Of a stretch of 32,000 nt of DNA, positions 1,952 through 30,751 are shown in pieces. Where the stretch lies: contig OY970322.1 of the NCBI GenBank assembly GCA_963716945.1, positions 180,001 to 212,000 of the forward strand, written 5' to 3'. Positions within the stretch are counted from its first letter, which is position 1. Each line of letters starts with the position of its first letter. Source of the DNA: Candidatus Saccharimonadota bacterium (GTDB lineage Bacteria; Patescibacteriota; Saccharimonadia; Saccharimonadales; UBA4665). The notes under the pieces were generated by a model. That model saw only the letters and a program-made list of their open reading frames with translations, searched no databases and was not told the DNA's origin. The position numbers and the translations under genes are program-made.

Positions 1952-3661
1952 CTAAACTTTGCACAATTCCGTGGAAGCCGGAGCGTGCGCCCCGGAAGAA
2001 TAAGCTAAAGTTATTGGCTTGACGCAATTGATTGGCTTTGGGGATATGACGATTTTTACTTTAGCTGCTTTGAGCCTAGCGTAGCTGGAATAAAAAGCTC
2101 CTGCGTAAACAAGGTAAGTTTTATCCGAATGCTCGAGGCTTGAAAGCTGTGAACTGATAGTAGAGAACTCAAAACCCCTCAAGACATAAGCTACTGATAT
2201 GTCGGGAATAATATTTCCGACCATTGTTACTATAAGCACCAATGCCAGCATTTTTTCTATCCTCCATCTGTTTTTTGCGATAAGCAATAGGGCCACTACT
2301 ATCGAGATTGGAAAAAGGCAAAACTGGTCACCGTACCGGGCGTAATTTGGCAAGGGGCTCAGTAAACAGGAAAGAACTATTAAAACCAGTGCCAAGCTAA
2401 GATAATTGAATATCTCCGCTTCGGCTTTAGATTTCTTTCGGATGGCCAAGTATAGATACACGAAAATCGATAAAGTGAGCGTCCCACTAAAGAAGACCCC
2501 ATAGCCGCCGACGAGTTTGGCGGCTACGCTTGCTTCGGCAACTAGTTCATCAACGTTTGACGTGAAGGGAAATTTTACATGGGCATCACTTGAGGCAACT
2601 TGTGAGTTACCGTCATCTGCAGAGGAGAATATGCCATAATAGAGCAGCTGTAATCTTCCGTCGTGGCGCAGGTTTAAAGGTACGCCATCATCTTTTACGG
2701 GATCCGAGAAACTTTTTTGGTTGAACGGGTAGTCGACGGAATGATATCTAGTGATATTTGTTATATAGGGGTTGAATAAGGTTACAAAGCCAACTATAAA
2801 CCCCAAAACTACCATTAGCCTAAAAGATCTCGTCTCGTATAACTTTTTACTAAAAACCACATACAGGAACAAAATCGATAAAGGCAGAAAAATAAACAAG
2901 TTGCTATCTTTAGTGCCCGCTAGTAAAACCAAAGAGGTAAGCAGGCACAGGTAGTATAGAGGCTTCTGACTGTTCTTTAACAATAAGACCAGAGAAGAGA
3001 GGCCGATTATCAGGACCTCGTAGCTTAGGCTGTCTTCCCTAAAGGTAAATATCTGTTCAACATACAAGGTCGTAACAATGGTCAAGAACGCAATAATGGC
3101 CGCTAAATATAGATCTATGCCAAGGGTCCCTAAGGTTTGGTAAAAAAGTGAAAAAGCCAGCAAGCCGACAATTAGGTTAATAGCTGTTGCCGAGTCAATG
3201 TTATGAGTCAATAAATAAATGCTTGAATCAATAGCCCAAATAATTTTCCCATATCCGCTATCGACCGGTTCGTCTATAGGGTTTGTCAGCTTGATGGGTT
3301 GTGATTTTTCGTATATAGGGTTCCATTTATTCGATAACTCAATAACCGCTGACTCGTGATAATCTTGGCCGTCATAACCCGTGTCATATGTATGCCCAAA
3401 AGCCGCGGCTAGCCCCAAAAAAATTAAAGGGGTGATTATGGCTCCGGCAATCAAGCATGACCACGTCTTTTTATCGACTTGTTTGAACCATAAATAAACG
3501 GCGCACATGCTTATGTATGAGACAAAGGCAGTTATAAGGGTCCAATGATTAATGTATATGTGACAAAAGAAGCCGGTAAATATAAAGAAAGCTAAATATA
3601 ATAAAAATACGACAGAGTACGCAGTATAACTCTGAACGAATCTCAATAATACCGCTCTCAT
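1952..3661 (-). CDS. Polytopic membrane protein of unknown function (possibly a GT-C-like glycosyltransferase or polymerase); strongly AT-rich gene
   Basis: Uninterrupted 569-aa ORF with more than 12 hydrophobic spans and an external loop containing YDTGYDGQDYHE. An extended -10 (TGTGATAAT, minus strand, 3670-3678) lies 8 nt upstream of ATG 3661. Composition is far below the neighbours (sampled lines 27-50% G+C). Confidence 0.6.
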   Translation of the reverse strand: MRAVLLRFVQSYTAYSVVFLLYLAFFIFTGFFCHIYINHWTLITAFVSYISMCAVYLWFKQVDKKTWSCLIAGAIITPLIFLGLAAAFGHTYDTGYDGQDYHESAVIELSNKWNPIYEKSQPIKLTNPIDEPVDSGYGKIIWAIDSSIYLLTHNIDSATAINLIVGLLAFSLFYQTLGTLGIDLYLAAIIAFLTIVTTLYVEQIFTFREDSLSYEVLIIGLSSLVLLLKNSQKPLYYLCLLTSLVLLAGTKDSNLFIFLPLSILFLYVVFSKKLYETRSFRLMVVLGFIVGFVTLFNPYITNITRYHSVDYPFNQKSFSDPVKDDGVPLNLRHDGRLQLLYYGIFSSADDGNSQVASSDAHVKFPFTSNVDELVAEASVAAKLVGGYGVFFSGTLTLSIFVYLYLAIRKKSKAEAEIFNYLSLALVLIVLSCLLSPLPNYARYGDQFCLFPISIVVALLLIAKNRWRIEKMLALVLIVTMVGNIIPDISVAYVLRGFEFSTISSQLSSLEHSDKTYLVYAGAFYSSYARLKAAKVKIVISPKPINCVKPITLAYSSGAHAPASTELCKV

Positions 3662-3703
3662 TCGGCAATATTATCACAAATCCAACGGGGCAACTTACAT
3701 GCT

Positions 3704-3796
3704 TGGCGGAGAGAGAGGGATTCGAACCCTCGCGGGGGATTGCTCCCCCCTATCGATTTAGCAAACCGACCCCTTCAGCCTCTTGGGTACCTCTCC
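3704..3796 (-). tRNA. tRNA-Ser (anticodon GCU), class II with long variable arm, CCA encoded
   Basis: Hand-folded cloverleaf. Acceptor is GGAGAGG/TCTCTCC with one G-U pair. D stem is 3 bp. Anticodon stem is TCGGT/ATCGA with loop TTGCTAA. Variable-arm stem is GGGGG/CCCCC. T arm is GAGGG-TTCGAAT-CCCTC. Discriminator is G followed by CCA. Confidence 0.9.
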
Positions 3797-3828
3797 AGAC
3801 CGACGTATTATAGCTGATTTATCTGAAC

Positions 3829-3918
3829 TGGCGGAAGGGGTGGGATTCGAACCCACGGTACCATTGCTGGCACGCTGGTTTTCAAGACCAGTTCCTTAAA
3901 CCGCTCGGACACCCTTCC
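3829..3918 (-). tRNA. tRNA-Ser (anticodon UGA), class II, CCA encoded
   Basis: Hand-folded cloverleaf. Acceptor is GGAAGGG/CCCTTCC. Anticodon stem is CTGGT/ACCAG with loop CTTGAAA. There is a long variable arm. T arm is GTGGG-TTCGAAT-CCCAC, followed by G-CCA. Confidence 0.9.
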
Positions 3919-4071
3919 TTAACGGCGCGCCAAACAAAACGAGGCGGTTTCATTTGAAAGCCCGGTAACAGAGGTGATTATAGCAGCGGGCAAAGATTTA
4001 TCAAAACCGGCCGGCCCCGGCTCCAGGGGTCGGCTTGGTCCTGCCGTCGGCACTGCGGTACAATAACGCTT

Positions 4072-7211: not shown

Positions 7212-7835
7212 TCAGATGACGGTTTTCCAGTAGTACCAGAAGCGGGTCAACAGCAGGCCAAAAATAAACAGGTACCACACCAGAAGGACATCGCCATGGT
7301 GAAGCCGCAACCAGGTCTTTACTTTCGGGGGAAGCAACCCCAGCTTTAGGTTCCCTTCGCCTACGTTATACAAGGTCGTATACCAGAGCACGGGCGGGAC
7401 TATCATCCACACCGCGAAACAAATCGGGCAAATGGCGTGTATGCGGTAAACCCCTTCAAAAAAGAGGTAAACGAAAAAGCAAAAACCCGCTAACGCAACA
7501 TAATTGATGCTTAGCCAGAGCCACTTTTTGAATGCCGCCCCGGCGAGCAGGGCCAGTCCGAGCGTGGCCAGGGCGCTGAAGCCCATTAGCCCGAATATCG
7601 TATTAGGCACACCCAGCAAGCTGGCCTGCTGAGTTTTCATGACCGAGCCGCAGCTTAATATGGGGTTGATATTGCAAGAGGGGTGGTAGGCCGGGTTCTT
7701 GAGGACCTGGATCTTGTCATAGGTCAGGGCAAAAGAGGCCGCGCAACCGATGATGCCTGCTATCAGGAATATATACGGTAGCGTTTGCTTAAGGGTAACT
7801 CCCCTTTTCAAGGGCTTAGGCGTGGATTTTGGCAC
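7212..7835 (-). CDS. Vitamin K epoxide reductase (VKOR) family disulfide-bond-forming membrane protein
   Basis: Loop cysteine pair (SCNINPILSC), a CxxC in a TM helix (CPIC), a VKOR-like GVPNTIFG segment and 4-5 TM spans. GTG start at 7835. Confidence 0.8.
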   Translation of the reverse strand: MPKSTPKPLKRGVTLKQTLPYIFLIAGIIGCAASFALTYDKIQVLKNPAYHPSCNINPILSCGSVMKTQQASLLGVPNTIFGLMGFSALATLGLALLAGAAFKKWLWLSINYVALAGFCFFVYLFFEGVYRIHAICPICFAVWMIVPPVLWYTTLYNVGEGNLKLGLLPPKVKTWLRLHHGDVLLVWYLFIFGLLLTRFWYYWKTVI

Positions 7836-9585: not shown

Positions 9586-9662
9586 TGGTACACCCGGCAG
9601 GATTCGAACCTACGACCTTTGGCTCCGCAAGCCAACGCTCTATCCAGCTGAGCTACGGGTGC
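9586..9662 (-). tRNA. tRNA-Arg with anticodon GCG (not the usual bacterial ACG), CCA encoded
   Basis: Sense strand is GCACCCG-TA-GCTC-AGCTGGATA-GAGC-G-TTGGC-TTGCGGA-GCCAA-AGGTC-GTAGG-TTCGAAT-CCTGC-CGGGTGT-A-CCA. The GTAGCTCAGCTGGATAGAG segment (positions 7-25) is identical to E. coli tRNA-Arg(ACG). Anticodon loop UUGCGGA gives positions 34-36 as GCG. Confidence 0.85.
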
Positions 9663-9836: not shown

Positions 9837-12800
9837 TTACTGAATGAGGCGCGGCGGCCGGGGCCGCGGCGGGTTTTTGCCGATCGGCGGCAACGGTTTT
9901 GGCGGTTGCGGCGAGGGGCCGGAATCCGGACCCGGGATTTCCGGCGCCGATGTCGGCGGTTCGCGGTGCGGCGCCAAGCGCAGGCTGCCGGCGTCTACCG
10001 GCGCGCTACCGTCTTGAGGGCCGGAATCGTCGGACCTTATGCCATGGCTCGGCGGTGCGTTCTTACCCTGGCGGCTCTTGAAAAGCAAGCCAAATATTAC
10101 CATCGCTGCCACTATGAATACTATGCCGAACAACAGGTAATTAGCTACCAGCTGCGGTTCAAGCTGCCGCAGAAAGTCGCTGATCGGCTGTTTGAAATCG
10201 CTGCCCCAAGCGCCCTTGATCGAAATACCGGCAAACTTGTTGACCATTGCGTCGGCCACGAGCTTATAAGCAACCAGGATTATGCCGGCCACCAGCAGAA
10301 CGGCGCCGATCCGCCGTACTCCGCGCCGCCGCTCAGGCGATACGAAGAAGATTCCCAGGCCGCTCAGGATCGCCAGGCCGCCCAGTATCCAAGGCAATTT
10401 GACACTTATCCGATAGGCTTTCGGCGCCCACGAAAGCTTCTTGTAATACGGTTGGCCTTGGCTGGTGCTGTTAGCCTGCCCCAACTCGTTCTGGTTCAGC
10501 GAAGCCGCCGTAATGACCGGATTGCTCAGGAAATCACCGCTGTCATTAACCTCCTGGGCCACCTGGGCCGCCTCGCTCTTGGGGTCGACGGTCGACGGCC
10601 GGCACTTAACCGATAACAGGTCGACCGGTATCGACAGCTGCGACAGCTGCTGGGCGGAACATACCGGCAAACTGGCCAAGCGGGACTGCACGGCCTGCCC
10701 GACTTGCTGGGCAAAATCCTGCTTGGCCGAGCTTAGGTCTATTTTGAAGTCCGGCGAGGACTGCTTGCCGTTCAGCCAGTCGTAGTTGCTGTTAATGAAG
10801 GTATTGACGCTCTGTTCGATCAAGCTGGGAGAAAAAGCGGCTTCGGCCGCCTGCTGAACCAGCGGGTCGCTCAACGAAACCGAGCCGGAATTCCCGCCGT
10901 CGGCACTCGATTTCTCGGCCTGCTGCAATACGGAAGCCGTGACCCGGTCATAAATCTTGCTGTTGGCCAGCGAACTTTCAAGCTTAGCCGGCGCCAAAGC
11001 TCGGTTTATATCCATGGCCGCGACCCCGCCGACCAGAGAAATAAGCAGCACCAAAGCCAATAAATGCACAAACCCCTTACGCAGCCAAATCATTACCCCA
11101 TTGTAGTCGAAACCGCTTGTTTTTGGTACAGCTGCCAAAGCTTTCGGCGGAACAAAAAGAGCATTGTGACCTCGTCGGCCGCCAAAACGTTTCAGTCCAA
11201 ACCCCAATATGAGCGATAGGCCGGAACCAGCTAATAATACTAACGCGACCAGCCACCCTATAGGCAGTCGGCGCGGGCTATTTCCGAACCCCGGCCTTAT
11301 TAAGGTCTTGAAGTCTGCCGCCGAAGCCGTAATGGCACCTATTCGTACCCGGCCGACGATACCTGCCGCACTGAACGACTTGTCAACTCCCCGTCCGGCT
11401 AAGAGGCTGGTGACAATAGCGGAGGAGCTGACAGCTAAACTATTGCCCGCGATACTGCCCATAGCCCCTCCCTGTAAGCTATTAGAACTACCTCTGTCGC
11501 CCAAGCTCTTCGACCCGCCTGGCTCTATTGTCAGAGGCTGGCCGATAGACCCGTCGCAAACGTCATCGATCCCGTCGCTATCGGTGTCATGGCCGCTATC
11601 GACGGCCCCCGGACAGCTATCGGCACTATCGGCTAGGCCGTCACCGTCACTATCATCAGAACCGGCCGTTACATAAACCGGCTGCCTGATATCCACCGGC
11701 TGGCCGGCCTGGCCCTGTCCGATAATATCGACGGTGTGGCCGCCGGCCGGGATGCCGGCCGGCAGAGTGATGTTGCCGACTATATCGGCGTTAGCGCTGC
11801 TCGCTACGGTCCCCAGCAACACTCCCGCTGAGCCGTCCAGCCTTACGGCGTAGGAGACGCTGGCCTTCAGACCATCGAGCGCCCCATCGGCTCGCAGGGC
11901 CGTGCTTTCCCCTACGTTTACCGCTCCCGGCAACAGCTTATCGTCAGGTACCAGAGCGTTTATCGTCCGACCCGTCTTAGGGGCATCCAAGATGGCTTGC
12001 CCGCCAGTATCGGAGGTCACGGTTGGCGCAACCCCCAAGTTGCGAGTCTGTTCAATGATTGCTTGCTCGAGCAAAGCCTGGCCTAAGGCGTTCGGATGGT
12101 AGCTTTCTTTACCAAAGACCCGGATTCCCAGCACGCTGCCGTCGCTACCGGCCGTCAGGCCGTTGACAGCCACGTTGAAGCCCGCCGTTTCACATAAACG
12201 ATGCCCGGCCAGAGCGCGGCTGACATCAACGTAAGCTACCCCGGCGTTGGCGCTTGCTTGGCGGATGGCGCTATCAAGGTAGTCGATCGTTTCTTCGGCG
12301 AAGGTCAGCTCATCCTTATTAAGATGAACATTTAGGCCGCAGTTGCCGTCATCCACGGTGATCTGGGGGTAGCCTATGGCGTAAATCCGTCCCCCGGGAT
12401 CTTCATCCGCCAACTGTTTATACAGTGCCGTCCAGCGCGGTATGGTGCGGTCAATCAACTGAGTTAGTTCAAACCGGTCTTCGTAGGTGGCATAGCAGGT
12501 ATTACTTGTGTCATGAAGGCCTAAATGGGGCGCCACACAGTCCCTGACGATATCGCCGAAGCCGACGTCGTCACCGCCGGCCGAGACCGTCATAATACCC
12601 GGCTGATATTGCCGCACGAATCGTTGTTGCGCCACGTAACCGGGCAGGTAACCGGCCATAATCGAATTCAGCAGCGCCGGTTGCGACTGTTGCAGCTGGC
12701 CAAAATTCAGTACGCCCCTAACCTGTCCGCGGTAACTTGAAGAGCCGCTGGCGAGATCATTAATAACCGCGCCCGAGCAGGCCACCGAATGGCCACCGGC

Positions 12801-13967
12801 ACTACTGAAAAGCGCCCGCCGCAAAAGCAAGGGGTAAGAGTTGGCGGACAAGTGGCACATGTTATCTGCGGTATCGGTCCCCGACAAGTAGTCAAAGGCC
12901 CCTTCGCCAGAGGTATATGAGTCGCCCAAGGCCAGGTAGTCGGTTAGCGGGCCTATGCTCTCCCGCGGCGCCAGTTCGTACAACCCGCCTCCGTCAGGAC
13001 CGGTAGTCCGGATATCAAAGCTCAGCAGGTTCTTATCAACAAAGCGCAAATGCCTTATAGCGTGAAAATCAGTGATCTGCTGCCTGACAAACGGCATGTA
13101 ATCATGCATGGCGCACTGCTGCGGCTGCAAACCTTTCATGATCCCGTCGCAAGCCGACAGGTCATACAGCCTTAAAACCGCCGCGTCGTCATTGTTGATC
13201 GCCACGTAATCCCCGTCACCGCTGATCGCTACCTGGGACTTGAGCAGTCCGGGGCTGCCGGTCGCGCCGAACGCCGGAGCGAAAGCCGCCACGTCCAAGG
13301 TTGCCAGGTTGACCCGGATGAAAGAGCCGTTCAGCGTTTCGGCTGCCAACCAGTCGCCGTTATCAGAAAAGGCTATAGTTTGAGGGTTGACCACCAGTGC
13401 CTGGCCGGCCGGATCCCTGAGCAATAAATCGGGGCCGGCCGTCAATTTCTTGCCGGTCAACCTGGCAGACGCGTCCCGCTGATCCTGCATGGCCTCTATG
13501 GGATTTCTGTAAAACCCAACATATGCCCCGCCGGTACTGGCAGGTTCAAGCGCTATCAACCCGCCTGCCTGGGGCCAGGGCACCGAAACTTGCCCTGACG
13601 CGTAAGGCAACAGCGGCAAGCCCTCATCCGTGCCATTAAATACGACCATTTCGCTGTCGGCATCCATCAGCCCGAAAGCCGTCGCCATGAAGCAGCCTGT
13701 TTGCACGGTTCCGCTATTCGGCAACCTGTACTCCATAGGCGTACAGTCCAAATTACTCAAGAAATTCGGCTCGCGCTGAAGGCTGTCGATGGCGCTAACC
13801 CGTTTTAAAGTCATAACCTTGGGCGAGGCCCAGTCCGGCCCCGCATCGGCCTCGCCGCCTGCCCTGTCCAACACCAGGCTAAGCAGGCAAGCGAACAGCA
13901 ACGTCCCGACCAGGAGGTACGCCAGTTGCCGAGCTAACCATCCCCACCCTGAACCTGACTGCTTCAT
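9837..13967 (-). CDS. Giant (1376 aa) multidomain envelope protein: signal-anchor, PD40/propeller-like region, SGNH/GDSL hydrolase, Ig-like region, thrombospondin type-3 (Ca-binding) repeats, TM anchor, then a second in-frame 4-TM module with a Pro-rich cytoplasmic tail
   Basis: Continuous ORF. SGNH block I is LALGDSYTSGEG, with the nucleophile Ser codon at 12920-12918 (aa 350). Block V-like motif is ESYHPN. TSP3-like sequence is DSDGDGLADSADSCPGAVDSGHDTDSDGIDDVCD (about aa 768-803, nt 11561-11665). TM span is IGWLVALVLLAGSGLSLILGFGL (about aa 900-922). The second module starts near Met959 (ATG 11093-11091). Confidence 0.8.
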   Translation of the reverse strand: MKQSGSGWGWLARQLAYLLVGTLLFACLLSLVLDRAGGEADAGPDWASPKVMTLKRVSAIDSLQREPNFLSNLDCTPMEYRLPNSGTVQTGCFMATAFGLMDADSEMVVFNGTDEGLPLLPYASGQVSVPWPQAGGLIALEPASTGGAYVGFYRNPIEAMQDQRDASARLTGKKLTAGPDLLLRDPAGQALVVNPQTIAFSDNGDWLAAETLNGSFIRVNLATLDVAAFAPAFGATGSPGLLKSQVAISGDGDYVAINNDDAAVLRLYDLSACDGIMKGLQPQQCAMHDYMPFVRQQITDFHAIRHLRFVDKNLLSFDIRTTGPDGGGLYELAPRESIGPLTDYLALGDSYTSGEGAFDYLSGTDTADNMCHLSANSYPLLLRRALFSSAGGHSVACSGAVINDLASGSSSYRGQVRGVLNFGQLQQSQPALLNSIMAGYLPGYVAQQRFVRQYQPGIMTVSAGGDDVGFGDIVRDCVAPHLGLHDTSNTCYATYEDRFELTQLIDRTIPRWTALYKQLADEDPGGRIYAIGYPQITVDDGNCGLNVHLNKDELTFAEETIDYLDSAIRQASANAGVAYVDVSRALAGHRLCETAGFNVAVNGLTAGSDGSVLGIRVFGKESYHPNALGQALLEQAIIEQTRNLGVAPTVTSDTGGQAILDAPKTGRTINALVPDDKLLPGAVNVGESTALRADGALDGLKASVSYAVRLDGSAGVLLGTVASSANADIVGNITLPAGIPAGGHTVDIIGQGQAGQPVDIRQPVYVTAGSDDSDGDGLADSADSCPGAVDSGHDTDSDGIDDVCDGSIGQPLTIEPGGSKSLGDRGSSNSLQGGAMGSIAGNSLAVSSSAIVTSLLAGRGVDKSFSAAGIVGRVRIGAITASAADFKTLIRPGFGNSPRRLPIGWLVALVLLAGSGLSLILGFGLKRFGGRRGHNALFVPPKALAAVPKTSGFDYNGVMIWLRKGFVHLLALVLLISLVGGVAAMDINRALAPAKLESSLANSKIYDRVTASVLQQAEKSSADGGNSGSVSLSDPLVQQAAEAAFSPSLIEQSVNTFINSNYDWLNGKQSSPDFKIDLSSAKQDFAQQVGQAVQSRLASLPVCSAQQLSQLSIPVDLLSVKCRPSTVDPKSEAAQVAQEVNDSGDFLSNPVITAASLNQNELGQANSTSQGQPYYKKLSWAPKAYRISVKLPWILGGLAILSGLGIFFVSPERRRGVRRIGAVLLVAGIILVAYKLVADAMVNKFAGISIKGAWGSDFKQPISDFLRQLEPQLVANYLLFGIVFIVAAMVIFGLLFKSRQGKNAPPSHGIRSDDSGPQDGSAPVDAGSLRLAPHREPPTSAPEIPGPDSGPSPQPPKPLPPIGKNPPRPRPPRLIQ
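9850..9878 (+). terminator. Possible intrinsic terminator for tRNA-Ser(CGA), embedded in the 3' coding end of the opposite-strand giant gene
   Basis: GC-rich imperfect hairpin CGCGGCGG-CCGGGG-CCGCGGCG (one mismatch) at 9850-9871, followed by GG TTTTT (9874-9878). Confidence 0.4.
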
Positions 13968-14728: not shown

Positions 14729-15577
14729 ATGGATGAGAAGGACCTGGGTAAACGGCTCCAAGCGGCGCGCCAAGCTGCCGGCTTGACGCAGCAGAAACTC
14801 TGCCAGCAAGCCAACCTTAGCTTCTCGACGCTGACCAAGATTGAACGCGGGGCCATCAAGTCGCCGTCGATCTTTACCATCCAATCAATAGCTACCGCTC
14901 TGGGCGTCAGTCTTGATGATCTGGTCGGCCAGGCCAGCCACGCCAATAACCGCCGGCGGCTGAGCAAAAGCAAGACCGGCGTCAGCTTCGTTTACTTCGA
15001 TGTCAACGGCTGCCTCATCAACTCGCCGCAGCGGGCCATGGCCCGGCTTTCGCAGGCGACCGGCGCGCCTTCCGACATCGTCGAAATGGCTTTCTGGCAC
15101 TACAACGACGATGTCTGCCGCGGCACTATGAGTATGAGCGACTTCAATGCCAAGCTGGCCAAGCGCCTCGAGGTAGACGAGGTCAAGTGGCAGGATTATT
15201 ACCTGGAGATGGTCGAACCGATCGAAAAGATGCAGGAGCTGCTCAAATGGGCTGCCGATAACTACAAAGTCGGTTTGATGACCAACATCATGCCGGGTTT
15301 GTTGAGCTCTCTGCGCCGCGGCGGCCAAGTTCCTGACCTGCCCTATGACGCCGTTATCGACTCGTCGGAGATGGCAACTATCAAGCCGGAGGTCAAAATG
15401 TATGAAACGGCCCAGCAGTTAGCCGCTTGCCCGCCCTCGGAAATCCTGCTGATTGATGATTCCAAAGTCAACTTGATGGCCGCCGAGAAGCTCGGTTGGC
15501 ACGTCTTATGGTTCGATGAGGTGCACCCGGAGGAGTCGGTCGAACGCGTGCGCGCCGCCCTCGAGCCCGCCGCTTAA
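14729..15577 (+). CDS. Fusion protein: N-terminal XRE-family helix-turn-helix DNA-binding domain plus C-terminal HAD-superfamily (subfamily IA-like) hydrolase domain
   Basis: The HTH region is LGKRLQAARQAAGLTQQKLCQQANLSFSTLTKIERG. HAD motif I is FDVNGCL (Asp91, but Asn93 at the Asp+2 position). Motif II is LMTN. A motif III Lys lies in IKPE. Motif IV is LIDDS. Extended -10 TGATATTAT (14714-14722) lies 6 nt before the ATG. Confidence 0.75.
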   Translation: MDEKDLGKRLQAARQAAGLTQQKLCQQANLSFSTLTKIERGAIKSPSIFTIQSIATALGVSLDDLVGQASHANNRRRLSKSKTGVSFVYFDVNGCLINSPQRAMARLSQATGAPSDIVEMAFWHYNDDVCRGTMSMSDFNAKLAKRLEVDEVKWQDYYLEMVEPIEKMQELLKWAADNYKVGLMTNIMPGLLSSLRRGGQVPDLPYDAVIDSSEMATIKPEVKMYETAQQLAACPPSEILLIDDSKVNLMAAEKLGWHVLWFDEVHPEESVERVRAALEPAA

Positions 15578-27763: not shown

Positions 27764-28453
27764 ATGAGTACCTGGCGGTTAGCCCGCACGCAGTTTATTG
27801 TCGCTTTGGGAATTTCCACGCTAATCAGCGTCGGGTTGTTCGCTTATGGGGCCTGGCGCAACAGCAGCTTCGAATATGACTATCTGGTTTGGAATTTGTT
27901 TCTGGCCTGGTTGCCGCTGGTGTTTGCGGTCCGGCTGATCTCGCTGTTGAGACATAAGCTGTGGTCCAGCTGGGAAGGTCTGGCCGTCAGCACGCTGTGG
28001 CTGGTTTTCCTGCCCAATAGCTTCTACATGATCAGCGACTTTATCCATTTGCAGGAAGTGCAGCGGGTCGACGTGCTCTATGACGCGGTGATGTTTACTT
28101 CGTTTATATATACCGGTGTGGTGCTTGGTTTCAGCAGTCTTTATTTGATCCATATCCAGTTGCGGCGGCGCTTGTCGCCGGCCGGTGCCGCGGGGTGGAT
28201 CATGGCTACGCTGCTGGTCTGCAGCGCGGCCGTCTATGTCGGCCGCGATCTGCGCTGGAACAGCTGGGATCTGCTGACTAATCCGGGCGGCTTGCTGTTT
28301 GACATATCGGACCGGCTGCAGCACCCGGCGGCCTATCCGCAGATGCTCGTGACGATTATTACCTTTTTCATCCTGTTGGCCACTATGTATAACCTGCTAT
28401 GGCGCGGCTCGCGGTTGCTGCGGCCGCCGCAGGCGGGTTTGCGTCAAAACTAA
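27764..28453 (+). CDS. DUF1361-family integral membrane protein
   Basis: WNLFLAWLPL, FLPNSFYMISDFIHL and RWNSWDLLTNP segments match my recollection of DUF1361. About 6 TM spans. Confidence 0.7.
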   Translation: MSTWRLARTQFIVALGISTLISVGLFAYGAWRNSSFEYDYLVWNLFLAWLPLVFAVRLISLLRHKLWSSWEGLAVSTLWLVFLPNSFYMISDFIHLQEVQRVDVLYDAVMFTSFIYTGVVLGFSSLYLIHIQLRRRLSPAGAAGWIMATLLVCSAAVYVGRDLRWNSWDLLTNPGGLLFDISDRLQHPAAYPQMLVTIITFFILLATMYNLLWRGSRLLRPPQAGLRQN

Positions 28454-28467
28454 AGTTATAGTATCGT

Positions 28468-28548
28468 ATGGTCATGCATGCATTAATTACATCGGTTGCA
28501 GTTATCCGCCGCGGCTCGCGTACTCCCGGGAGCTGCCCCTGTAATTAG
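28468..28548 (+). CDS. Candidate arginine-codon leader peptide (26 codons) of the argH-argF operon
   Basis: Translation is MVMHALITSVAVIRRGSRTPGSCPCN with a TAG stop. Arg codons are CGC CGC (28507-28512) and CGT (28519-28521). TATAGT (28457-28462) lies 5 nt upstream of the ATG. The 3' end overlaps the antiterminator arm. Confidence 0.45.
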   Translation: MVMHALITSVAVIRRGSRTPGSCPCN

Positions 28549-28579
28549 TGCGTAAATAAGGTTCCAAGGCAGCTCCCGG
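28526..28579 (+). promoter_or_regulatory. Candidate antiterminator pairing of the arg attenuator
   Basis: CCGGGAGCTGCC (28526-28537) is perfectly complementary over 12 bp to GGCAGCTCCCGG (28568-28579). The 3' arm includes the entire 5' arm of the downstream terminator hairpin. Confidence 0.5.
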
Positions 28580-28592
28580 AAGGGAGCTTTTT
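28571..28592 (+). terminator. Intrinsic terminator hairpin upstream of argH (attenuator terminator)
   Basis: AGCTCCC-GGAA-GGGAGCT (7 bp, GNRA-like loop) is followed by TTTT (28589-28592). It ends 23 nt before ATG 28615 of argH (SD GAGAGGA lies in between). Confidence 0.6.
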
Positions 28593-28614
28593 AAATTAAC
28601 GAGAGGAATGAGAT

Positions 28615-29811
28615 ATGAGTAAGTTATGGCAAGAAGATAACGCGGTAAACCTGAATCCGCTGGTCGAGGCCTATACCGTCGGTGACGACTACCGGCAGGA
28701 CCAGCAGCTGCTGGGCTATGATATCCGGGCCAGCCGGGCGCATGCGGCGATGCTGCGGTCCATCGGCGTGCTTAGCGGCCGAGAGCTGGCGCAGCTACAG
28801 AGCGCACTCGACGAGCTTATGCGTCTGTGGCAGGCCGGAGATTTCGTCATTGAGCGGCATCAGGAAGACGGCCATACGGCAATTGAGCAGTACTTGACCG
28901 AGAAGCTGGGCGACGCCGGCAAAAAGCTGCACACCGGCCGGAGCCGGAACGACCAGGCGGCCGTCATGATGCGGCTCTACCTGAAAGATAATCTGGCTCA
29001 AACCGCCGCGCTGACGACCAAGCTGGCGGCCGCGTTTGCCGCCGCTGCCCGGAAGGCCGGCCAGACGCCGATGCCGGGCTACACGCACATGCAAAAGGCC
29101 ATGCCGACGACGGTCGCCATCTGGCTGAACTCGTTCGCCGACGGTTTTTCGGATTCACGCAAAATCCTCGAGTCAACGCTCGAAGTAATTGACCAGAATC
29201 CCCTAGGTTCGGCGGCCGGTTTCGGCGTGTCGGTCGGTATTGACCGCGAGCATACGACCAAAGCTCTGGGCTTCGCCCGGACCCAGAAAAACACCATGTA
29301 CTGCGGCCTGTCCAGGAGCCTGTTCGAGCTGCTGGCGGTCCAGGCGCTGACGCCTTTGATGGTGCTGGCCGGCAAATTCGCCCAGGACATGCTGCTGTTC
29401 ACGACCGAAGAGTTCGGTTTCTTCAGGTTGCCGGAGTCGTTCACGACCGGGTCGTCGATCATGCCGCACAAGCACAATTACGACCTGTTTGAAGTGATGC
29501 GGGGGAACGCCCATTCGTTTACTTCTTACACGGGGCAGCTGCAGGCCATATCGGTCGGTATGGGCAGCGGTTACCAGCGGGATTTGCAATTGACTAAAAG
29601 TACCACGCTGCAGGCTTTCGGCATCGCTAAGGCAACGCTCGAAATTCTGGCCGCCGCGGTCGAAGCCCTTAAGCTTAACAAGGCCAGGCTGGAGGCCGCG
29701 ATCACGCCGGAAATGCTGAGCGTCACGGCCATTAACGAACTGGTCGAGCAGGGGATGCCGTTTCGCGACGCCTATAACCGGGTAAAATTGGAACTCCACA
29801 AACTGGACTAA
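28615..29811 (+). CDS. argH: Argininosuccinate lyase (short form, 398 aa)
   Basis: TGRSRNDQ and the fumarate-lyase signature GSSIMPHKHNYD. The N-terminus aligns with ArgH. The protein ends about 10 aa after FRDAYNRV, so the usual C-terminal extension is missing. Confidence 0.9.
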   Translation: MSKLWQEDNAVNLNPLVEAYTVGDDYRQDQQLLGYDIRASRAHAAMLRSIGVLSGRELAQLQSALDELMRLWQAGDFVIERHQEDGHTAIEQYLTEKLGDAGKKLHTGRSRNDQAAVMMRLYLKDNLAQTAALTTKLAAAFAAAARKAGQTPMPGYTHMQKAMPTTVAIWLNSFADGFSDSRKILESTLEVIDQNPLGSAAGFGVSVGIDREHTTKALGFARTQKNTMYCGLSRSLFELLAVQALTPLMVLAGKFAQDMLLFTTEEFGFFRLPESFTTGSSIMPHKHNYDLFEVMRGNAHSFTSYTGQLQAISVGMGSGYQRDLQLTKSTTLQAFGIAKATLEILAAAVEALKLNKARLEAAITPEMLSVTAINELVEQGMPFRDAYNRVKLELHKLD

Positions 29812-29845: not shown

Positions 29846-30751
29846 ATGAGACATGTTATTTCGATAACCGACCTTTCGGCCGACGAAATCAAGTCGGTCG
29901 TCAAATCGGCAATCGACCTTAAGGCCGCCTTGAAGGACCCGTCTAAACGGCCCGACCGGCCGTTGAGCGGCCAGAGCATGGCGATGATCTTTGATAAGTC
30001 CAGTCTGCGGACCAGGCTGTCGTTCGAAGTCGGCATGACCCAGCTTGGCGGCCACGCTGTTTACCTGGCACCCGAGGACATCAAGCTCGGCGTACGTGAA
30101 ACCGTCCACGACACGGCGATTGTCATCGGCAGCATGGCCGACGTAATCATGGCCCGGGTTTCCAGCCATGAGGCGGTACAAGAGCTGGCCGAGTACTCCA
30201 AGGTACCGGTCATCAACGGCATGACCGACCTGGAGCACCCGTGCCAGGTACTGGCCGACCTGCAAACTATCTATGAGCGGTTCGGCACTTTCGAAGGCAT
30301 TAGGATGGCTTATTTAGGCGATGCTGACAACAATGTCACTAATTCGCTGGCCCTGGCGGCCGGCCTGCTGGGCATGGAAATGAGTATTGCCGCCCCCAAA
30401 GGCTACGAACTTTCGCCGGACATCGCCGCTAGAGCCGGCCGGTTGTCGCAATTTGATAATCCACAGGCGGCCGTCAAAGGGGCCCAGGTAGTCGTGACCG
30501 ACACTTGGGTCAGCATGGGCAAAGAGACCGAACGCGCCGAACGGCTTAAAGACCTGTCGCCGTTCCAGGTTAATCAGGAACTGATGGCTCTGGCCGACAA
30601 AAAAGCTATCTTCATGCACTGCCTGCCGGCTTACCGCGGCAAAGAAATGACCGCCGAAGTCATTGACGGTCCCCAGTCGGCCGTGTTCGCCGAAGCCGAA
30701 AACCGCATGCATGCCGAAAAGGCCTTGCTGCTGTACGTGCTGGCCCCCTAA
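29846..30751 (+). CDS. argF: Ornithine carbamoyltransferase
   Basis: SLRTRLSFE (SxRTR), HPCQVLADL, DTWVSMG (the ornithine-binding DxxxSMG) and HCLPAYRG. 301 aa. Confidence 0.9.
   Translation: MRHVISITDLSADEIKSVVKSAIDLKAALKDPSKRPDRPLSGQSMAMIFDKSSLRTRLSFEVGMTQLGGHAVYLAPEDIKLGVRETVHDTAIVIGSMADVIMARVSSHEAVQELAEYSKVPVINGMTDLEHPCQVLADLQTIYERFGTFEGIRMAYLGDADNNVTNSLALAAGLLGMEMSIAAPKGYELSPDIAARAGRLSQFDNPQAAVKGAQVVVTDTWVSMGKETERAERLKDLSPFQVNQELMALADKKAIFMHCLPAYRGKEMTAEVIDGPQSAVFAEAENRMHAEKALLLYVLAP

Follow-up and report, generated by a model that had tools for sequence, protein, structure and literature searches.

A probable arginine-codon leader-peptide attenuator in front of the argH-argF genes of a Saccharibacteria genome

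Arginine biosynthesis is, in textbook terms, a pathway controlled by repressors (ArgR/AhrC) and not by attenuation. In fungi, the arginine attenuator peptide encoded by the upstream open reading frame (ORF) of arg-2/CPA1 exerts translational control through nascent-peptide arrest by free arginine, and the peptide itself is essential. Leaderless polycysteine small ORFs (sORFs) of mycobacteria sense cysteine and are reported to attenuate operonic gene expression (bioRxiv 10.1101/834739), and 14 leaderless leader peptides have been predicted in Deinococcus deserti (PMC4007540). In Staphylococcus aureus, the rbfL leader peptide detects a shortage of arginine by the slow decoding of its Arg codons (PMC13009471). 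The other nearest items in the literature are the Salmonella speF leader and leaderless leaders that are either Cys-specific or unspecified. No bacterial Arg-codon leader attenuator for arginine biosynthesis was found described in a full-text literature search, which did not cover subscription-only papers, so that a prior description is possible. In this study, we analysed the 161-nt intergenic gap (28454-28614) in front of the argH-argF genes in a 32,000-nt stretch of contig OY970322.1 (the window, to which coordinates refer unless a locus is named). This gap very probably contains a ribosome-mediated leader-peptide transcription attenuator that is specific for arginine and would control argH-argF. 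The host belongs to Saccharimonadales (Saccharibacteria, Candidate Phyla Radiation (CPR)), and the closest argH loci in GTDB are all from Saccharimonadales metagenome-assembled genomes (MAGs; 81%, 73%, and 70% identity). To our knowledge, gene regulation in CPR bacteria (Patescibacteria) is almost unknown, since most of these bacteria cannot be grown alone.

The gap, which follows a DUF1361 gene, contains a short leader ORF with clustered Arg codons, an intrinsic terminator, and RNA segments that can pair in alternative ways. The features of the element are listed below with the evidence for each.

28457-28462, plus strand: -10-like hexamer TATAGT, 5 nt 5' of the leader ATG, putative promoter of a leaderless transcript (read from sequence)
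28468-28548, plus strand: leader ORF of 26 codons, MVMHALITSVAVIRRGSRTPGSCPCN, without a Shine-Dalgarno (SD) sequence, stop codon at 28546-28548 (sequence; homologues in 17 other genomes)
28478-28491, plus strand: 5' strand of the outer helix P0, AUGCAUUAAUUACA, over ORF codons 4-8 (minimum free energy (MFE) folds)
28507-28512, plus strand: tandem CGC CGC Arg codons, proposed stall site (aligned columns CGY CGY; footprint folding)
28511-28520, plus strand: region 1, GCGGCUC.CG, 5' arm of the anti-antiterminator, immediately following the two CGC codons (fold; covariation)
28519-28521, plus strand: third Arg codon, CGT, whose C and G are also paired within the 1:2 hairpin (CGTA invariant in alignments)
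28526-28537, plus strand: region 2, CCGGGAGCUGCC, partner of region 1 or region 3 (sequence; covariation; fold)
28540-28553, plus strand: 3' strand of P0, UGUAAUUAGUGCGU, across the leader stop codon (MFE folds)
28568-28579, plus strand: region 3, GGCAGCUCCCGG, 3' arm of the antiterminator, including the 5' arm of the terminator (sequence; covariation)
28571-28592, plus strand: intrinsic terminator with a 7-bp stem AGCUCCC/GGGAGCU, GGAA loop, and U5 tract (sequence; fold -12.8 kcal/mol)

The Arg cluster CGC CGC GGC TCG CGT (28507-28521) places three Arg codons within five codons of the leader ORF. Downstream of it, CCGGGAGCTGCC (28526-28537) is perfectly complementary to GGCAGCTCCCGG (28568-28579), with an energy of -29.5 kcal/mol for the 12-bp duplex; by a rough estimate, a perfect 12-nt complement within ~150 nt would arise by chance with a probability of ~1e-3. 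The terminator hairpin AGCTCCC-GGAA-GGGAGCT (28571-28588), which alone folds at -12.8 kcal/mol, is followed by a T-run to 28592, 22 nt before argH. Since the 5' arm of this hairpin (28571-28577) sits within the 3' arm of the long pairing, antiterminator and terminator are mutually exclusive. The initial annotation of this DNA had already described the TATAGT hexamer, the 26-codon ORF from ATG 28468 with its three Arg codons, the perfect long-range pairing, and the hairpin that excludes it, and all of these were found again as described. Two further helices were not part of that annotation. One is the 1:2 hairpin between 28511-28520 and 28527-28536 (-15.0 kcal/mol), with which the classical 1:2 / 2:3 / 3:4 layout is complete. 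The other is P0, formed between 28478-28491 and 28540-28553 (-16.9 kcal/mol, z = -4.1 versus shuffles). P0 was rejected as a universal feature of the element, being significant in the window and in four other loci (L001, L017, L049, and L008) and absent in others.

The distribution of the element was examined in a comparison set of 80 argH loci from species-representative genomes (referred to by L numbers), whose upstream regions were scanned for Arg-rich small ORFs and terminators, and by a covariance model, R1, which was built from 11 sequences and searched over 81 sources. A homologous leader, consisting of an ORF with an Arg cluster and then a terminator at the head of an arg operon, is present in 18 species-level genomes including the window. 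Model R1 matches 16 of the 81 sources at 34-108 bits, and every match lies directly 5' of the gene that opens an arg operon; the window gives a single match (28495-28596, 90 bits). The initial annotation had staked its reading on the fate of three features in relatives: the ORF and its Arg codons are kept in all 18 leaders, and the alternative pairings are kept with compensatory changes in the aligned sequences. The gene orders downstream of the leader are as follows.

argH-argF: window and L001
argH-argF-argJ-argB: L005
argG-argH(-argF-argJ): L004, L006, L011, L017, and L019
GNAT-argG-argH: L008, L020, and L022
GNAT-argH: L049
argH-argB-argS: L003
argH-argG-argS: L031 and L065

The upstream neighbour varies and the arg operon is constant. 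Only four loci (the window, L011, L017, and L020) have a DUF1361 gene 5' of the element, which indicates that the hairpin is not simply the terminator of DUF1361.

The pairings were examined for covariation in a model-fitted alignment of 16 distinct, related sequences, with 500 shuffles and slid helices as controls. In the terminated state (1:2 plus 3:4), 95.3% of the positions are paired, as compared to 43-52% in slid controls, 10 of 16 pairs are changed on both sides, and none of the 500 shuffles matches the observed pairing, the double-change counts, or the covariation score. Taken separately, helix 1:2 has 92.3% of its cells paired and 5/9 pairs changed on both sides, and the terminator helix 3:4 has 99.1% paired and 5/7 changed on both sides. 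The antiterminator 2:3 is paired to 86.3% (slid controls 32-45%); both partners differ in 8 of 12 pairs, and its covariation score is reached by 0/500 shuffles. Furthermore, alignment columns 83-85 of region 3, which lie beyond the terminator, covary with region 2 (G-C to A-U; U-A to C-G or G-C), and this constitutes evidence specific to the antiterminator. A second alignment of 11 sequences, made by plain MAFFT with no structure fitting, gives the same covariation picture. Overall, the three pairings are paired to 86-95%, as compared to 31-55% in slid controls. The MFE folds of the relatives are divided between terminator and antiterminator, as expected for near-isoenergetic alternatives. The stretch from the Arg codons to regions 1 and 2 is free of alignment gaps, which means that all members share the same geometry. 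A CUU/AAG extension of the antiterminator was also considered and dropped, the linker being too poorly aligned for pair counting.

The conservation of the leader ORF is that of a reading frame and its Arg codons. The Arg cluster RR(x)xR is in frame in all 18 leaders, 8-13 codons past an ATG or GTG start, with 3-5 Arg per leader, and the other two frames over the same leader spans hold 24 stop codons each. In the columns of Arg1 and Arg2, variation is almost confined to the third codon position, and the pair at columns 25-36, which involves the third Arg codon, is C-G in 16/16 sequences. The N-terminal halves of the leader peptides (MVMHALITSVAVIRRGSRTPGSCPCN in the window; MNYLQVHFAANRRSSRISGSCPCS, MVLLQTTNTNRRSSRIHGNCPCNC, MKKQFTFLSRRSSRISGSDARI, and MAYIAPSVQNRRRSRRFEGIAAV among relatives) are unrelated among genomes, and a motif of the peptide, RRSSRISGSCPC, is conserved. 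Two leaders, L004 and L008, have an ORF that ends directly after Arg3-Ile, and the downstream RNA segments and pairings are still kept in them. The apparent conservation of '..SGSCPC' is thus that of RNA region 2 and not of the peptide, because these two leaders lose this part of the peptide and keep the RNA. The block CUUGUAAUUGYUAA around the leader stop codon (window 28538-28553; alignment columns 46-60) is also conserved as a nucleotide sequence, including in L004 and L008, where it is no longer coding. This block is a partner in P0 in some genomes only, so its conservation is just partly explained.

Codon choice in the leaders is strongly biased. Among the 66 Arg codons of the 18 leaders, 62 are CGY (CGC or CGT; 94%), as compared to a CGY share of 29% in the arg genes behind these leaders and 42% in the genes of the window. 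A cognate tRNA is encoded in the window, as the initial annotation had reported:

9586-9662, minus strand: tRNA-Arg(GCG), the sole tRNA-Arg in the window, decoding CGC and CGU, candidate sensor (tRNA scan; anticodon loop by eye)

Its anticodon loop reads UUGCGGA and its CCA end is encoded. The strong CGY bias together with this tRNA suggests that one isoacceptor, tRNA-Arg(GCG), serves as the sensor. Bacteria normally have a tRNA-Arg with an ACG anticodon, which is deaminated to ICG by TadA, and archaea use GCG instead. The tRNA-Arg(GCG) may bear on the decoding of CGN codons in this lineage.

The effect of a ribosome on the alternative structures was modelled by refolding 28468-28594 with a 28-nt footprint masked (A site -15 to +12). 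When CGC 28507 or CGC 28510 occupies the A site, the MFE structure is the 2:3 antiterminator and the terminator is lost; a footprint placed with its A site at CGT 28519 or at the stop codon gives the terminator. The ribosome-free RNA folds into P0, 1:2, and the terminator (-44.9 kcal/mol). Masked folding thus reproduces the attenuation logic put forward in the initial annotation, in which a stalled ribosome leads to the antiterminator and a ribosome at the stop codon leads to the terminator. What the analysis shows are the elements, their mutual exclusivity, their conservation and covariation in 16 distinct sequences, the linkage to arg operons, and the state-dependent predicted folds.

In the proposed mechanism, transcription would begin at or just before AUG 28468, or would read in from the DUF1361 gene, and a ribosome would translate the 26-codon leader as RNA polymerase moves on. 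When charged CGY-reading tRNA-Arg (anticodon GCG) is scarce, the ribosome would stall with CGC 28507 or 28510 in the A site, cover region 1 (28511-28520), and disrupt P0. Region 2 (28526-28537), being freed, would then pair with region 3 (28568-28579), and this antiterminator would consume the 5' arm of the terminator and allow read-through into argH-argF. When Arg-tRNA is plentiful, the ribosome would reach the stop codon at 28546-28548 and mask the 3' half of region 2; the hairpin at 28571-28588 with its U5 tract would form, and transcription would end near 28592. In a leader that is not translated, P0 and 1:2 would sequester region 2 and the terminator would form. For the short-ORF variants L004 and L008, it is expected from the alignment that a ribosome at the stop codon would cover both regions 1 and 2, also favouring termination. 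We infer the transcription start, the leaderless initiation, the stalling, the termination, and the response to arginine as the steps of this scheme.

The leader ORF has no SD sequence, unlike argH, which has GAGAGGA. In relatives, TTGACA-like -35 boxes are separated by spacers of 16-17 nt from -10 boxes that end mostly 6-7 nt before the start codon, as in the following loci.

L022: TTGACA-16-TAAAGT-7-ATG
L031: TTGACA-17-TTTAAT-6-ATG
L008: TTGACA-16-TATTAT-6-ATG
L024: TTGACT-16-TATGAT-6-ATG
L044 and L048 (a second type of leader, see below): TGnTATAAT-6-ATG, by eye

With a start ~7 nt past the -10 box, the transcript would begin at the AUG, and the leader peptide would be leaderless. The leader is thus probably translated from a leaderless transcript, and the leaderless leader peptides of mycobacteria (bioRxiv 10.1101/834739) and D. 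deserti (PMC4007540) provide a precedent. The initial annotation had regarded the missing SD sequence as a caveat that would call for leaderless initiation; the -35/-10 spacing of the relatives favours such a start, and the window's own -35 box is poor.

Several observations weigh against the attenuator reading or parts of it. The window has a good -10 box but a poor -35 box, and its promoter is putative. Because of this poor -35 box, and because the DUF1361 stop codon lies 14 nt before the leader ATG, ribosomes could enter by read-through from DUF1361 and reinitiation at an internal start instead of by leaderless initiation, and we know of no demonstrated leaderless translation in Saccharibacteria. 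In footprint folding, a ribosome stalled at the third Arg codon would promote the terminator, and the caution that the initial annotation had attached to this CGT codon was thus well placed. P0 is absent in L005, L019, L022, L065, and L011. The single-sequence fold z-score of -1.48 is unexceptional, which leaves the case beyond chance to rest on conservation and covariation in relatives, and the covariation counts come from 16 related sequences, with one of the two alignments being model-fitted. Finally, in L002, a close relative with 73% ArgH identity and the same argH-argF order, the region 3000-3303 upstream of argH has no leader, Arg-rich ORF, or terminator. This indicates that the attenuator can be lost and is not universal even in close relatives.

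Among alternative explanations, the one that survives best, and still an improbable one, is that a protein, either an RNA-binding one that carries arginine (TRAP or PyrR type) or a DNA repressor of the ArgR type, makes the decision and that the small ORF is incidental. Arginine regulons are classically under protein control, both the CUUGUAAUUGYUAA block and the invariant CGUA are conserved past strict pairing needs, and argR may lie elsewhere in the genome. However, no ARG box (TNTGAATWWWWATTCANW) was found within 3 mismatches anywhere in the window, where a lineage-specific variant box is possible, and no ArgR-like protein is present among the annotated proteins of the window. The initial annotation had itself raised an ArgR-type operator as an alternative. 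Furthermore, promoter-proximal sequence is unconserved, whereas the ORF, its frame, and its Arg codons are conserved, Arg1 and Arg2 vary almost only synonymously, and the start codon stands at a fixed distance from the -10 box.

It is less probable still that the leader peptide itself senses free arginine, in the manner of the fungal arginine attenuator peptide or of TnaC, so that arrest near the stop codon would mask region 2 and enforce termination. Such a peptide sensor would fit with the conserved motif RRSSRISGSCPC and with the model, in which a ribosome held at the stop codon favours the terminator. However, L004 and L008 are without the whole C-terminal half and keep the RNA, the N-terminal half is unconserved, the conserved C-terminal codons are those of region 2, which covaries with regions 1 and 3, and clustered cognate codons are the hallmark of a system that senses tRNA charging. 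The least credible alternative is that there is no regulatory device at all, the hairpin being the DUF1361 terminator, argH having its own promoter, and the ORF and long pairing being due to chance: the hairpin does lie 3' of DUF1361, which also precedes the element in L011, L017, and L020, and the fold z-score is weak, but the element stands at arg operons in at least 11 genomes without DUF1361 upstream, the space from the terminator end (28592) to argH (28615) is too short to hold a promoter, and the 1:2 and 2:3 covariation would be left unexplained.

The element in front of argH-argF does not correspond to a known RNA family. Rfam at the gathering threshold gave only 4 tRNAs over the whole window, with no leader family or T-box, and a permissive scan (E <= 10) of 28380-28680 gave only two chance miRNA matches with E > 1. 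The element is thus not in any curated leader family (Trp_leader, His_leader, Leu_leader, Thr_leader, etc.) or T-box class, and the Rfam check proposed in the initial annotation matched no known leader.

Leaders of similar design were found outside the Saccharibacteria. Analogous Arg-rich leaders with their own 1:2 / 2:3 / 3:4 sets stand 5' of argG in Marinimicrobia (e.g. MLNNRRNNRQNRRRSNHMEGHR), in Lentisphaeria (MKLAHLHISLMNNRRRHPERQGTGV), and in one Paceibacteria MAG, as judged from weaker model matches and inspection. In Marinimicrobia and Lentisphaeria, the leader ORFs have up to 7 Arg in 22 codons and are followed by strong terminators 5' of argG, at the following loci.

Marinimicrobia/Lentisphaeria leader loci: L032, L033, L035, L043, L047, L050, L069, and L080 (about 2500-2730); L063 and L079

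These leaders appear to be analogous or distantly related to the Saccharibacteria element. Three loci of other Patescibacteria (L044, L048, and L077) have a leader beginning MLKVLF..SSSRRL.., with a terminator and with a -10 box at a distance of 6 nt from the ATG; the footprint model gave no antiterminator MFE structure for this type. These three represent a possible second CPR leader type, related to the element. In a metagenome scan with the conserved-core 17-mer CGYCGYAGCTCACGTAY, which returned 80 loci, the element was found only in L126, and the others were chance matches. A search for a second leader, 5' of carAB in the genome of the window, gave a single contig, which breaks off within carB.

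We lean slightly towards the view that the element represents an unrecognised and widespread class of Arg attenuator, which would take the place of ArgR at the argG/argH operons of Patescibacteria, the Saccharibacteria included, with analogues in Marinimicrobia and Lentisphaeria, and which would be leaderless and tuned to one isoacceptor (94% CGY; tRNA-Arg(GCG), unusual for bacteria). If true, such a class would give CPR bacteria their first defined cis-regulatory switch, and would imply coupled transcription-translation as well as leaderless initiation in these organisms. A covarying RNA switch would also offer a testable handle on CPR promoters, leaderless translation, transcription-translation coupling, and intrinsic termination. 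It would mark those Saccharibacteria that regulate, and so probably use, de novo arginine synthesis, and model R1 can be used for annotating the element in further genomes.

The genes that flank the gap are those named in the initial annotation. The gene upstream of the gap is a DUF1361 gene (PF07099), and the features downstream of the terminator are the following.

28601-28607, plus strand: SD sequence of argH, GAGAGGA, 7 nt 5' of the ATG (read from sequence)
28615-29811, plus strand: argH (argininosuccinate lyase), first gene regulated in the proposed scheme (TIGR00838, 292.7 bits versus a cutoff of 279.5)
29846-30751, plus strand: argF (ornithine carbamoyltransferase), second gene of the operon (NF001986, 408.7 bits; TIGR00658, 385.6 bits)

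In some relatives, the operon behind the leader contains additional genes. The gene argS, encoding arginyl-tRNA synthetase (TIGR00456), follows the arg genes downstream of the leader in L003 (6309-7964) and L031 (6459-8117), and an unannotated 552-aa ORF occupies the argS position in L065 (6458-8116). Judging from this gene order, the synthetase that charges the attenuator's own sensor tRNA may also be under its control. The first gene after the leader is a small one of 165-206 aa in L020 (2221-2739), L022 (2067-2687), L049 (3472-3999), and L008 (2221-2718), preceding argG in L020, L022, and L008, and argH in L049. The L020 copy, the only one scanned against Pfam, matches GNAT acetyltransferase families, and none of the four copies has an NCBIfam match. 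This gene may encode a short N-acetylglutamate synthase. L049 also contains two identical copies of the leader with its flanks (3341-3473 and 7579-7711), 4238 bp apart on one Saccharibacteria contig, where the arg region has either been duplicated in tandem or been misassembled.

Elsewhere in the window, the stretch 2001-4000 has a GC content of 0.42-0.44, as compared to ~0.57 in the rest, and contains a 569-aa ORF without a Pfam match (1952-3661, minus strand) and two neighbouring tRNA-Ser genes (3704-3918). This stretch may be foreign DNA inserted beside tRNA genes. The ORF at 14729-15577 (plus strand) has an N-terminal helix-turn-helix domain of the Cro/C1 type fused to a HAD-family hydrolase domain, an unusual architecture for a regulator. 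The ORF at 9837-13967 (minus strand) encodes 1376 aa with a GDSL-like lipase/acylhydrolase as its sole recognisable domain, and its product is probably a large surface or secreted protein.

In summary, the leader in front of argH-argF closely resembles the attenuators of the amino acid operons of E. coli. Like trpL, hisL, leuL, thrL, pheL, ilvL, and ivbL, it includes a short ORF whose cognate codons are clustered within or beside region 1, the same exclusive 1:2, 2:3, and 3:4 pairings with a U-tract terminator just before the first biosynthetic gene, and the same predicted logic, in which stalling makes region 2 available and a ribosome that has reached the stop codon masks it. It differs from them in being directed at arginine, in its CPR host, in having no sequence or covariance-model similarity to Rfam leaders, in the lack of an SD sequence with a start 5-7 nt past the -10 box (probably leaderless), and in the extra helix P0 of some members. 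The mycobacterial and D. deserti leaders are likewise reported to be short ORFs at the 5' end, rich in the cognate residue, in front of biosynthesis or aminoacyl-tRNA synthetase genes; the mycobacterial sORFs sense cysteine, whereas the element here is Arg-coded. In contrast, rbfL of S. aureus relies on rare AGA/AGG codons, occludes the rbf ribosome-binding site so that limitation represses, and acts on a biofilm regulator and not on arginine synthesis, with no terminator/antiterminator (PMC13009471). The ArgR/AhrC system shares the target, repressing arg biosynthesis genes when arginine is sufficient, but ArgR is a DNA-binding hexamer that acts on ARG boxes, whereas the element here would work at the RNA level, as a switch that the ribosome reads. 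The fungal arginine attenuator peptide also links an upstream ORF to the control of an arginine-pathway gene in response to arginine, but it is eukaryotic and translational, and the peptide is dispensable in the element here, as in L004 and L008. A conserved Arg-codon attenuator would thus extend the leader-peptide repertoire (Trp, His, Leu, Thr, Phe, and Ile/Val) to arginine: its mechanism appears to be of the textbook trp-operon type, and its arginine specificity, probable leaderless start, and CPR host appear to be new.

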